From Callorhinchus milii (taxonomy: Eukaryota): 64,000 nucleotides of DNA. The notes below the pieces were generated by a model. The model worked only from the letters and a program-made list of their open reading frames with translations. It made no database searches and was not told the origin of the DNA. This document shows positions 8,889 to 31,832 of this stretch, piece after piece (the stretch's first letter is position 1; each line of letters opens with the position of its first letter). Location of the stretch: positions 96,970,001 to 97,034,000 of the forward strand of contig NW_024704742.1 of assembly GCF_018977255.1 (NCBI RefSeq), read 5' to 3'. Position numbers and translations under genes: made by a program.

Positions 8889-10272
8889 ACAGTACTGTGA
8901 TGCATATTTAGTTTAGATTTGGTTTGGTGCTGCAGTTAAAGTGATGCTGTATTTTGCAATCCAATATTACATTACAATATTTTTAAGTCCGAATTTCAGC
9001 TGCAGCTATACTTGCCTTCCCAGAGGTAGCATTATGAAAGGTATTGCTGCACAGTGGACAATTGGCTGTCAGACTCCTGACCAATACTCAAACTGTTCAA
9101 CAACATTTGTAGAACCCTTCAAATAGAGGCTTGTTTTCTTTAACCCTTTGACCTTTTAACGGTTTCATAACCATTTCTGTTACTACTGTTTATTTTGATA
9201 TTGTATTGTGTACAAAATTACAAGGAAACTCACAAACAGTAAGTGAGAGAGAGAGTGAGAGAGAGGCCAATACATACTGCAGTTGTAAAATCCGATATGC
9301 AACAGTCAAGCTGTTTGTGATCACAATTGATAACTGTGGTGCAGTCATCTTATCAACGCTGGATCAGTGCTAGAGCTGCAGGGAATTCCTGCTACCTGCC
9401 ATTCACTTGGTGAGGGCTCAAACCTGTACTTGTGAGAGGTCAAATGACCAACTAGCAATTATCCTCTGGGGCGGGGAAGGACAATTGTTTAATGTCAGAA
9501 GTGAGCAGTCTCGATCAATATATGTGCATGCACTAATAGTGTATATGGCATCTGCAGCAATTCAAAGAGTTTATATACAGTATTTTACCAATGTTTTTAA
9601 ACCCATGTTTTTCTTTTTATTAACGTGGAATGCATATAAACATTAAATATAACAAAAATGATGAACACAAACATGTAATATGGGTAATTCTCCTTCAGTT
9701 ATTTAATGTGAATTTGAGGGACATTTACACCTCTTGGTAACTTAATTCCCAGGATAGAATCGCCAGCAAATTTGTTCTGGCAAAAAGTTCATATCTGCTT
9801 AGCCATACTCTCCCGCTCTGACTTCCTTCAATCCTACCGACTCAACCCTACCGACTCAGCCCTCCCTTTGCTCAGTGAGCACCAGCCTGCGTTGTGTCTC
9901 CTGCCCTATCCCCCCCCACCCCATCATCGGCAGGTGAGCTTTCACTCATTCTGCTTTCTAAAATTCCATGCCAGAGTCTCCAACTCTCCATAACCTCGTT
10001 CAAGATGTTATGGAGAGTTGACTGTGTTGTCGATCATCTTTCCCTTCCCTGGCCCCCTTGTGTTCCATCCCCAGACAGCAGCCCTTTGAGATGTCCTTCT
10101 GACAATAAATGTTAGTTGTACAGCAAAAACATTTACCATGTGGCTTTTTAAAATAAAATTATTTAAAATAGTTGGGAAGAAAATCATTGTGTTGTTTAAG
10201 TTTTGCCCCCTCACCCTAACTTACATAATTCTCCTTATTTAGTGATTTGTTTTTTTCTTTTCTGTCACACAG

Positions 10273-10427
10273 GCAAATGCACAGTTAATTCGTGACATTG
10301 ACGTAGAGAAGGTGTCGTCATTCTCTAACCCATATGTAGATGCAATCAAATGTTTATGGATCGACCCAGGGATCCAGGAATCCTATGATAGACGGAGAGA
10401 ATACCAGCTCTCTGATTCCACCAAATA
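10273..10427 (+). CDS. GNAQ: G protein alpha-q, coding exon 3 (155 bp)
   Basis: Hand translation gives [51 protein letters not shown](Y). Acceptor is pyrimidine tract + cacacag, donor is TA|gtaagt. STKY is GNAQ-type (GNA11 has SAKY). Not in the ORF track. Confidence 0.97.
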
Positions 10428-11804
10428 GTAAGTATTTGAATCACTGACTTTTCCACTATTATTGGAACAATTTACACCATAACATTGAATCTTCCTGGGC
10501 TAAGATGAAATCAAAATCTTGATCCTATGATATGGAACCACATGTGGAGTAAGAAGGTTCTTTTACGTTTATGATAAACTTCCTAATCGAATGCACTGAT
10601 AACATAGTCCCATCTCTTTGAAGTGCCAGGGAATAGATACAATTGTAAGAAATAAACTGGAAGTAACGGAATACAGTATGAGGTTATTGTAAACCATTTA
10701 AATTCCTAACATCATGCTGTGGGCCTGGTTTGAGGAATAGGAACTGCGATTGACTGTCACTAAGTGAATCGGAAAGATTTATTGTACACTGTTACGCCAG
10801 TGAGGAATTCTGCCCTTATTTCTTGTGTTCTTGTGTTCTTATGATAGCATCGCAAAGCACTTGGCAGTGCCGGAGCATGACAGTTGCAAGAGGGTCACCT
10901 ACCCTTCTCCCTTCTTACTTTCTCAGAATCCAACTCCAACCCTATAAAATGTACTTGAAGCATCATCCTACAGGAAGGGTGCTATTTAAATGCAACATTT
11001 TGTTGGTGTACCACGATATTATACCCTGTTTTCTTTCACACTTCCAAAAGCAGGTTTAGACATCAATCTGATTATTCAGTGGGGGAGTGTATTTATTTTG
11101 TGCTCGTCCAAGTGATGGTGGTTAATGCTGGGCGTAAGTAGAACCGTTTATGGGCATCGACTGCCAGCAGTAAGAACTCCCAATGCTGATCTAATTTGGG
11201 TTACGTTTAGAATAAAGCTGCTACAGCCTCAGAAGAGCTCCCTCTACTGTATCAATGTGTCACATCCTATGCCATGACCTGTCTGAGCAAGGTTGGTAGT
11301 TAATCCATATTAACGGCTTTGTCCACTGTCCCCAAGAACTGGGCTGCTATACAAACACACTGGCAGTGTAACTTCTCAGCCATTTGATTTGTTTAATTTC
11401 TGTTTCAATCTTTGGCATTCGCAACACTGCCTGATATCCTGAAGCTTTTGCCTATCAAATGATGTATGATGAATACATACTTAGGAACATCTTACAGCTG
11501 ATAAAATGAAAGAAAGACATACACAGAATAATGGAGTCTAAGTACAGTCAAATAAAAGGGTCATTAAAGTACAAAAATATTTACATTCAATCAATAGGAA
11601 ACATATGCTAATTAATTTTCATGTTATTTCTATGGACAGAAATAGGTGACCCAAGGTTAACAAACACTGCCATCTATTGATTGGAGTTCTCATAGAATTT
11701 AGTTATAATTGTCTTTATTTTTTTTGCTCAGCCAGTGTTTGACAAATAGGAAACTCATCAACATGGTTAAAGAGTATCTAAATCAAACTGAGAATTTCAC
11801 GAGA

Positions 11805-11946
11805 ACCAGTTCTGACGAAAGGTCATTGACTTTGAAACGTTAACTCATTTTCCTCTCTCCATGGATGCTGCCTGATCTGCTGCGTGTTCCCAGCAACTTC
11901 TATGTTTATACCAGAATTTCCAGCATGTGTATTACTTTGCCTTTTC
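11805..11946 (+). mobile_element. Penelope-like element terminal fragment with minimal hammerhead motif
   Basis: cagttctgacgaaaggtcattgactttgaaacgttaactc...ctctctccatggatgctgcctgatctgctg...ccagca resembles chondrichthyan Penelope-like ends as recalled. The CTGANGA...GAAA core is seen directly. Confidence 0.7.
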
Positions 11947-11969
11947 TCATTATCTTTCTTATTTCACAG

Positions 11970-12088
11970 TAGCCTTAGTGATATTCAGCACTAGATTATC
12001 TGCCAATCAAATAGGATGTTCTGCAGGTTAGAGTGCCCACAAGTGGTGATATTCAGTGTTCATTTGACATGAATAATTTAATCTTCAG
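11970..12088 (+). pseudogene. GNAQ: Degenerate tandem duplicate of GNAQ exon 4 (exon 4*-like pseudo-exon)
   Basis: Boundaries ttcacag|T ... ATCTTCAG|gtattg. Reads SLSDIQH / DYLPIK*DVLQVRVPTSGDIQCSFDMNNLIFR versus exon 4 [43 protein letters not shown]. Length 119 bp versus 129 bp. Confidence 0.9.
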
Positions 12089-12543
12089 GTATTGATTGGG
12101 GCATAGTGTATATCTCCTATCTTCCACCGTTTTTGCAGTATGTTCTGATTTAATATTAACATGATCACATCCGCTTTAACTCTGAACTTTGGTTATGGGA
12201 TAGTGTAAAAAATTATATCTTGTGCTTATTCTAAGTAAATGTATTGCTTCTACCAAAACAAATTTTGGTTTAAAACAAAACTTTCAGGAATTTTGTAAGG
12301 CAATACTGAAAAAATACATCCCTCATCTGTGGATAGTGTGCACAATCTGGTGAGGAGTGGAAGTGAGATGTAAATATATTTCACATGTCACCTTTCTGAA
12401 TAAATGGTAATCTGGGGTAATTCTCTAGGACTTTTAGAGGCAATGCGAATGGCCATCAACCCAATCACACCCATTCTGTTTTGTCTCCCAAGGAATAATC
12501 GGGTCATAGTCTTTGCATTCCTGTTGTTTCTCCCTGTTTCCAG

Positions 12544-12672
12544 CTATCTTAAAGACTTGGACCGTATATCAGAACCTTCCTATCTACCCACTCAACAGGA
12601 TGTGCTTAGAGTTCGAGTCCCAACAACAGGGATCATTGAATACCCCTTCGACTTACAAACCGTCATTTTCAG
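12544..12672 (+). CDS. GNAQ: G protein alpha-q, coding exon 4 (129 bp; switch I, catalytic Arg183)
   Basis: [43 protein letters not shown]. Acceptor tttccag, donor AG|gtagaa. Phase matches exons 3 and 5. Confidence 0.98.
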
Positions 12673-13265
12673 GTAGAAGAAAAGCTGCTGAAAGACAGTG
12701 ACTGTTTTTAAAACTTCGATTTTTAGGAAATTTGAGCATCATTCAGTAAATTTCACTTTCTGCAGTACTGTAGTTGATTTGAATAGAATGAAAAGCACAT
12801 GCGAGAATAGTTTGGACCATAATGATTATTTAGATTATATTGAATGCTTATAAAAGTTAACCAAACATTTTAAAAAATGTTTATGAATTATAAAGTCAAA
12901 TTATACAATCTAAAGTATGTTTACATGACATTCAAATCTGATGTGAATAAACTATGAAATGTTTTGATTCTGCATTTCAAGATTGTAGATATTTCCCTAG
13001 TAAGAAAATGTGCAATGTTTATAGTGATTTTTTTACCATTTGAACGAGTGCAGAGTCACTGAAAATGATGCTCTTCAATGTTTTTCACTTCTAACATTGC
13101 AAATGTAAACTGGATGTAAAGTAAAATTTAAAGATTTCTTATAGATTGTACATCAAATACAAGAATTATTATTACATTGTGCTCTTTGTTTGATGTTTAG
13201 CTCATCGTAGCTCATTTTATTTTCACGAATAATTAACATTAGCTCAGTGAATGACGTGGTCGTGA

Positions 13266-13472
<207 letters not shown>

Positions 13473-14057
13473 TAGAAATCCATGAGAGTTTGAATATGCT
13501 GAACCGTGAGCATAATGTACTTTTTTTTGTAATTTTCAAACATTTGGCTTTATCTTCCAGATTAAGTAAGACTATTTGTTCAAATGTGAAAACGTATTCC
13601 TACCATAACTCTTGTCAGGCTGATTTTTCAATACTCCAGTGCATTGCACTCCCTGAAACCACAGAAAGGCTTGTAAAAATACATATATTTAAAGAACTAT
13701 ATTTAGTTATCAGACAGATGCTGCTAGGGAATATTAACATTGAATTAGCATTCTATGGCTGCTTTTATATTTTGAATGTATTTATATTACAATAACTAGA
13801 AGGATAGATACAGCTATTGCTCAGTTTCCACGCTCAATCAGCTTGAATCAGCTGTTACAAGCTGAAACTGATCACCATGTATTTTCAGAGCATCCAAACC
13901 GATCAATTGAAAGTTTAACATATACATGGGAACTTCTGTTTGTCTAGAATGAAATGCACACTGTTCTTTCCAGAAGGACGTAATCCCAGAAAGTTTAGGT
14001 CCAGTTTGACAAGAGCGAAAGTATAGGGATGTCAGAGTGTGCATTGGGTACTTCCTT

Positions 14058-15018
14058 GACACCAACTCTATCTTTCTGCTTCCACCCTCAACTCCAGGAC
14101 CACTGCTGTCCTGACAGACTGCCTGTCAGACATCAAGTCCTGGATGAGGACAAATTTCCTACAGTTGAATGTGAACAAGACTGAGGCCCTCCTGATTGGC
14201 TTGTGCCAGCGCCTCAGCACCTCAGGCTCTGGCAGCATCAACCTCCATGGTTGCACACTTCAACTCACCAGCCAGTTAGGAACCTCGGTGTCTTGTTCGA
14301 CCCTCAACTGTCTTTTCTTCCCTACATTCAAGCCATGATCTGCTCTGCCCTCCCTGACCTCCGTAACATCGCCCGACTCCGCCACTAACTCAACACTCAG
14401 GCCACTGAAACTCTTGTTCCTGCCTTCATCACCTCCAGGCTCGACTATGCAAACGCCCTGCTTGTCAGCCTTCCCAACTCCTCCCTCCACAGGCTGCAGA
14501 TAATCCAGAACTCTGCAGCCCGTGTCCTCTCCCGCACCAAACTCCATGACCCCATCTCCCCCCACTCTCGCCCGACTCTATTGGCTCCCTGTCCTTCAGA
14601 GGATCCAGTTCAAGATCCTGGTCCTCACGTACAACGCCCTCCACGGCCTCGCCCCACCCTACCTCTGTGACCTCCTAACCCCCTATCAACCTGCCCGTTC
14701 CCTCTGCTCAGCCGGCTCTGGCCTGCTCCACATCCCCCGACCCACCTGCCCCACCATTGGCGGGAGAGCCTTCAGCCACTCTGCCCCCAATCTCTGCCCC
14801 CATCCCCCATCACTCCACCTCGCCCCCTCCTTAGCCTCCTTCAAGTCCCGCCTCAAGACCCTCCTCTTCGACCATGCCATCAGCCATCCCCCTTCCCCTC
14901 CCCTCCCTTCTCCCCCCCTGACCCCAGCTCAGGTCTGAAATACTGTACACTGTCCAGCACTTTAGGACGTCTTTCCGACATGAAAGACGTTATACAAATG
15001 TAATCTTGTTGTTGTTGC
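14058..15018 (+). mobile_element. L2-clade LINE, 5'-truncated, relatively young
   Basis: Starts at the end of the RT YADD motif; ..WMRTNFLQLNVNKTE..LARLYWLP..; tail cttgttgttgttg. Highly similar to the 41.7-42.5 kb copy. Confidence 0.95.

Positions 15019-23097: not shown

Positions 23098-23286
<189 letters not shown>

Positions 23287-31610: not shown

Positions 31611-31832
<222 letters not shown>

Follow-up and report, generated by a model that had tools for sequence, protein, structure and literature searches.

The GNAQ locus and a second exon 4

The window, a stretch of 64,000 nucleotides from Callorhinchus milii, holds exons 3 to 7 of GNAQ on the plus strand, with exon 2 lying about 34 kb upstream of it and a GNA14-like gene, on the same strand as GNAQ, about 40 kb beyond its end. 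Exon 3 (10273-10427, 155 nt) carries a Pfam G-alpha match and ends in phase 2 (TA|). Its acceptor AG occupies 10271-10272, which moves the exon start from 10271 to 10273. The working exon 4 (12544-12672, 129 nt) is of what we call the downstream type ('4b') and ends in ...QTVIF. It is followed by exon 5 (13295-13424, 130 nt), exon 6 (about 23125-23286) and exon 7 (about 31641-31796), all on the plus strand. Contigs of four coded sequencing runs were aligned to 10200-13500; those of runs X1 and X5, which we call RNA-like on the basis of a guess about the nature of the runs, leave exon 3 at 10427 and mark the borders of exon 4 by their joints. A scan of 10400-13400 with Rfam (E <= 1) returned 0 matches. 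Further downstream, intron 5 contains long Pro/Ser/Leu-rich open frames on both strands at about 14000-15000 that resemble a decayed retroelement.

Within intron 3, on the same strand and ending 455 nt before the start of the working exon 4 at 12544, lies a 119-nt segment (11970-12088) that we interpret as a pseudo-exon, a decayed upstream-type copy ('4a') of GNAQ exon 4. It is entered through a pyrimidine-rich tract and CAG acceptor (11946-11969, with the AG at 11968-11969), and its terminal CAG is followed by the donor GTATTG (12089-12094), which matches the consensus at positions -3 to +3 only. A deletion of 10 nt falls between 11991 and 11994, the expected site of the four codons preceding the DYLP motif. 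The reading frame entered from exon 3 continues for eight codons and then meets a first TAG at 11992-11994. The 3' part of the segment (11994-12088) is in the phase of exon 4 and is interrupted by a single TAG (12012-12014), which stands in place of a Gln codon. Further on, an AGA codon (12030-12032) stands opposite the second Arg of the RVR motif in the alignment and is presumably the counterpart of Arg183 of human Galpha-q. The initial annotation had described a 119-nt segment 455 nt 5' of exon 4 with CAG and GTATTG borders, the 10-nt deletion, the stop at 11992-11994 after exon 3, the TAG at 12012-12014 and a surviving Arg183-equivalent AGA; all of these are present in the sequence, with the Arg183 equivalence resting on the alignment. 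At 119 nt (124 nt in a second haplotype described below), with a frameshift and two TAGs, the segment is not a working member of an exon-4 pair.

The segment is homologous to exon 4. A tblastn search with exon 4 finds it at an E value of 1.4e-7 in the window plus additional loci and at 0.0016 in the whole 991.5-Mb genome. Within intron 3 its local score is 104 against the shark-type upstream copy described below and 89 against the downstream copy, compared with a maximum of 41 over 300 Markov shuffles, none of which (0/300) attained the score of the relic. A protein search with the relic itself, its stops read through as X and a 40-aa reference used, yielded no candidate with three 5-residue words in common. 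A possible third exon-4 copy at 11359-11406, a weak similarity over 16 residues to the terminal part of the exon, was rejected as unproven: its score of 35 was attained by 8 of 300 shuffles, and the weak pieces at this site are not colinear and are probably due to chance.

Intact exon-4 pairs in elasmobranch GNAQ

Tandem duplicates of this exon have been reported before. The main text of Lokits et al. (2018, BMC Evol Biol 18:51, PMC5896119) describes duplicate exons 4.1 and 4.2 in both GNAQ and GNA11 of coelacanth and gar and, for teleosts, in GNA11, places the origin of the pair, as a proposal, before the 2R genome duplications, and proposes further that the duplicate exon was 'deleted' in other lineages. 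The pair is described there as altering a region in contact with G-beta-gamma, RGS proteins and PLC-beta. This is the comparative work on fishes to which the initial annotation had referred under the name exon 4/4*. The words Chondrichthyes, shark, Callorhinchus, milii and pseudo-exon are absent from that main text, and we found no paper on a chondrichthyan exon-4 relic in the literature searched, where only Lokits et al. covers the exon pair. The relic corresponds to the same 129-nt exon as the published 4.1/4.2 pair, involves the same switch I region and has the same tandem arrangement in the gene. It differs in its fate: the pairs in the main text of that study are intact, or one copy is 'deleted', whereas here the copy has decayed in place. 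The same text also describes exons 7/8 of GNAO, likewise a tandem duplication in a G-alpha gene that provides mutually exclusive versions of interface regions; that case concerns a different gene and exon, and both versions are kept in all major vertebrate clades.

A protein search with the working exon 4 produced 1,894 matches, the 120 best of which were examined, and 69 of these 120 contain, by pattern, two tandem homologues of exon 4. The best matches score about twice the single-copy maximum because they carry these two homologues in tandem. Among the matches listed are at least 12 GNAQ models from 10 elasmobranch species in which both exon-4 copies are intact (P0002-P0012 and P0026, annotated as G(q) subunit alpha isoforms), including those of Scyliorhinus canicula, Pristis pectinata, Chiloscyllium, Hemitrygon, Mobula and Narcine. 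In these models an upstream copy ending in ...ENIIF precedes a downstream copy ending in ...QTVIF. Other pair holders among the matches listed are GNA11 models of gar, coelacanth and teleosts, where one copy ends in ...ENIIF and the other in ...Q(S/T)(I/V)IF, and Gq models of arthropods. The elasmobranch models (402, 387 or 344 aa) contain both copies at once, and the frame is kept because 129 is a multiple of 3.

Callorhinchus milii shares with the elasmobranchs the gene and the order of the copies, and the downstream copies of the two groups are closely alike: the working exon 4 shares 95% identity with the downstream copy found in shark and ray GNAQ, compared with 81% for the upstream copy. 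In elasmobranchs, however, both copies are open and conserved, whereas here the upstream one is frameshifted and carries two stops. The upstream copy is identical in three (Pristis, Chiloscyllium and Hemitrygon) of the seven elasmobranch models included in our tree.

Several comparisons bear on the type of the relic. Positions 3, 5, 12, 38, 39 and 40 separate the upstream from the downstream type in 12 of 12 elasmobranch models, and at these six positions the relic has the upstream residue three times, the downstream residue never and neither of the two three times. Its tblastn bit scores are 43.5-45.4 against upstream copies versus 37.7 against downstream copies. By hand count over 38 codons, deriving it from the upstream type takes at least 20 nucleotide changes, and deriving it from the downstream type at least 25. 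A maximum-likelihood tree of 49 exon-4 peptides contains a branch, supported at 85/76, that separates the relic together with the seven elasmobranch upstream copies from the rest; this is weak evidence given that the alignment has 42 columns only and that the branch of the relic has a length of 2.25. On the same 42 columns, AU tests do not reject a placement of the relic within the clade of downstream copies (p 0.27) or as sister of its own exon 4 (p 0.11). From its position and the three of six type-specific residues, we infer that the relic is the orthologue of the elasmobranch upstream copy. Its counterpart is intact in 12 elasmobranch models, and the deletion and both TAGs occur in the window and in an independent contig of run X9, as is characteristic of a unitary pseudo-exon.

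Altogether, these results lead us to conclude that the relic is very probably a dead exon, the decayed upstream member of an ancient tandem exon-4 pair of Gq-class G-alpha genes. The proposal of the initial annotation that a once-alternative exon 4 had been left behind here is thereby borne out, both copies being intact in elasmobranch GNAQ models. We envision a scenario in which the ancient pair encoded alternative versions of the end of the helical domain, linker 2 and switch I. The upstream copy would then have lost constraint in the present lineage, probably the chimaera lineage, with sharks and rays keeping both. The 10-nt deletion, the two stops and at least 20 amino-acid-changing substitutions would have followed this loss of constraint, and the insertion of a repeat beside the acceptor of the relic would be a later step. 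GNAQ mRNA is now made by joining exon 3 directly to the downstream copy, and the relic itself probably has no present function.

Splice signals, constraint and splicing past the relic

The initial annotation had gone further and suggested that the relic may now act as a poison exon. According to this explanation, the relic is spliced into the mRNA in some cells or tissues, the premature TAG at 11992-11994 directs the transcript to nonsense-mediated decay (NMD), and selection keeps the arrangement to tune the dose of Galpha-q. Its splice signals are compatible with such a role. Both the AG and the GT are present, and the acceptor has pyrimidines at 14 of the 17 positions from -20 to -4, a count equal to that at the acceptor of exon 4. 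Judged against the splice donor consensus, the donor of the relic is as consensus-like as that of exon 4 (CAG|GTAGAA), which also matches at -3 to +3 only. The signals of the relic thus appear to be no weaker than those of exon 4, and its low-level inclusion as splicing noise is quite possible. The consequences of inclusion would also be as proposed. NMD is expected when a premature stop precedes the last exon junction by more than about 50 nt, and the TAG at 11992-11994 is in the frame of exon 3 with exons 4 to 7 after it.

These signals do not require selection for their survival. The relic carries at least 20 amino-acid-changing nucleotide changes over 38 codons, which contain about 86 such sites, corresponding to about 0.28 substitutions per site after correction. 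At 0.25-0.3 substitutions per site, chance alone would preserve all four splice bases (AG and GT) in about 30-37% of cases, and therefore the intact splice sites of the relic need no selection to explain them. The surroundings of the acceptor have also changed. An interspersed, SINE-like high-copy repeat occupies 11806-11945 in intron 3 and stops about 24 nt short of the relic's acceptor AG. A query of 11760-11969 against the animal's own genome yielded at least 4,515 first-look candidates, with copies mostly covering positions 47-186 of the query; the 40 that were scored are 84-92% identical, a range that is biased upward since these are the best copies. Depth reaches the thousands over bins 11754-11975 in all four runs. 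If both the relic and the repeat evolve neutrally, the repeat would have inserted well after the exon lost constraint. Within the species, two haplotypes differ by three bases and a 5-nt indel in the 119 nt of the relic. Taken together, the number of changes, the haplotype differences and the adjacent repeat give no sign of constraint on the relic.

The contigs that cross introns pass the relic by. The joint 10427>12544, from exon 3 to exon 4, is found in one contig each of the RNA-like runs X1 and X5, as is the joint from exon 4 to exon 5 (12672>13295; the aligner gave 12666>13289, and the cut is movable by 6). An 841-nt contig of X5 contains exons 3, 4 and 5 and skips the relic. In the spliced contigs of both X1 and X5, the only exon 4 in use is 12544-12672, with the qualification that contigs drop rare forms. 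The relic itself (bins 11976-12197) is uncovered by the contigs of the RNA-like runs X1, X5 and X8, and those of X1 cover the intron on either side of it, a pattern that is no evidence either way. None of the loose contig ends listed lies at 11970 or 12088.

The NMD-coupled poison exons that are known, for example those of SR-protein genes, are measurably included and usually conserved together with their flanks. The relic is like them in having a premature stop well before the last exon junction. It is unlike them in that one of its flanks has received a repeat insertion and its inclusion is unseen in the assembled contigs. A further point against the poison exon is a probable sister relic in GNA11, described below, that has no donor. 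With joints that bypass the relic, a repeat 24 nt from its acceptor and a survival of its splice bases by neutral chance in about one case in three, the poison-exon role is unsupported and, given the relaxed constraint that the sequence points to, unlikely. If it were true, the relic of an alternative switch-I exon would serve as a dose control for Galpha-q in chimaeras.

Age of the duplication, haplotypes and paralogues

How old is the duplication from which the relic descends? The 3' part of the relic and the working exon 4 are identical at 21 of 32 first, 25 of 32 second and 10 of 31 third codon positions. First and second positions combined (46/64) thus differ sharply from third positions (10/31; Fisher p 0.0003). 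Third positions are saturated and the first two are kept, and therefore most of the divergence arose while both copies were coding. The flanks of the relic and of exon 4 show no similarity to each other (blastn E >= 0.69). Third-position saturation and dissimilar flanks together argue against a recent local duplication. The exon-4 duplication appears to be ancient, in a manner that fits the pre-2R origin proposed in the main text of Lokits et al. (PMC5896119). The initial annotation had also favoured an ancient duplication, based on a resemblance of the end of the relic to GNA11 and GNA14; this idea is upheld, with the end belonging to the upstream ('...ENIIF') type that is common to GNA11 and GNA14 and with the third positions pointing the same way.

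Alternatively, the relic could stem from a tandem duplication of exon 4 that took place recently in this lineage alone, gave a copy without function that decayed in place, and had nothing to do with the old 4.1/4.2 pair. In its favour, the AU test does not reject a relic placed as sister of its own exon 4 (p 0.11). Against it stand the codon-position pattern and the dissimilar flanks, as well as the presence of an intact copy at the same upstream position in elasmobranch GNAQ and the upstream-type residues of the relic (3/6, versus 0/6 of the downstream type). A recent origin is accordingly disfavoured, and we regard it as very improbable.

Another explanation would be that the exon is intact in the animal and that the deletion and stops are errors of assembly or sequencing. 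The DNA-like run X9 speaks to this directly. A 770-nt contig of this run, aligned over 11884-12647, spans the relic, with no change listed at the deletion site (11991-11994) or at either TAG. It differs from the window inside the relic at 11972, 12007 and 12066 and has 5 extra nucleotides at 12063-12066, which bring the relic to 124 nt and leave it still out of frame. At 12007 the X9 contig has the residue of the intact copies (Thr), and therefore each haplotype has its own derived changes. X9 may come from the same sample as the assembly, but the differences from the window mark its contig as a second haplotype, likewise broken. The initial annotation had called for the deletion and the stop to be confirmed, and both are found in this assembled DNA contig. 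We found no support for an artefact, and with an independent contig that has the same lesions, differs elsewhere and is itself out of frame, we consider one extremely unlikely. The X1, X5 and X9 contigs also share a synonymous T>C change at 12613 in exon 4 relative to the window (GTT to GTC, Val), which is a polymorphism or an assembly-specific allele. Finally, a chance similarity between intron sequence and exon 4 is refuted by the score and E value given above (104 versus a null maximum of 41 in 300 shuffles; tblastn E 1.4e-7) and by the strand, phase and position that the relic shares with the intact elasmobranch copy.

The dead GNAQ exon may not be the only remnant of the pair in this genome. 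The animal's own GNA11, on the minus strand of contig C21, possesses only one exon 4, which belongs to the downstream type (...QSIIF). Its intron 3, which is 953 nt long, contains a relic-like stretch of 29 stop-free codons with upstream-type resemblance at about 9546588-9546674 of that contig, minus strand (positions 527-613 of the reverse complement of locus L018, and 2329-2243 of locus L003). About 610 nt separate the stretch from exon 4, and no GT follows it. Its score of 49 compares with a maximum of 45 over 1000 shuffles, and tblastn with upstream-type queries finds it at E values of 0.002-0.003. It probably represents another relic of this exon pair, one that has decayed further than that in GNAQ. 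A search for exon-4 relics in introns 3 and 4 of GNA14 gave scores inside the shuffle null.

The single copies that remain in different genes are of different types. Among the mammalian models (P0014 and P0097), GNAQ carries the downstream type (...QSVIF) and GNA11 the upstream type (...ENIIF). In Callorhinchus milii, the ending of GNA14 is upstream-like (...ENIVF) and that of GNA11 is of the downstream type (loci L003 and L004). The distribution of endings suggests that the two exon-4 copies have been lost reciprocally among paralogues and lineages.

These data extend the story of Lokits et al. (2018) to the cartilaginous fishes. The exon-4 pair would have been present in GNAQ of their ancestor and is retained by sharks and rays. 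In the present lineage it would have been lost by slow decay and not by deletion, with the GNA11 relic as an older-looking parallel. The present lineage could thus offer a natural 'one-isoform' case to set against two-isoform sharks in asking what the second version of switch I is for. As a dated pseudo-exon, the relic could also be used to ask for how long splice signals outlast coding sequence. Our understanding of Galpha-q signalling is unchanged, and the finding adds detail to a known story.

Two further observations concern other members of the family. Many insect and crustacean Gq models (396-432 aa, P0042-P0101) also contain two tandem exon-4 homologues, with the upstream copy ending in ...EEIRF and the downstream copy in ...DSIIF or similar. 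In a small tree the two arthropod types group together, apart from the vertebrate types, and the same exon has probably been duplicated independently in arthropods. The Callorhinchus milii GNA11 model P0120 is 100% identical to our own GNA11 translation over 60 + 39 residues and has 27 extra residues. We considered whether these could represent a relic exon and rejected the idea: they correspond to 81 nt of intron directly 5' of exon 4 that are read through (within 1420-1599 of the reverse complement of L003), and are likely the product of a mis-modelled acceptor.
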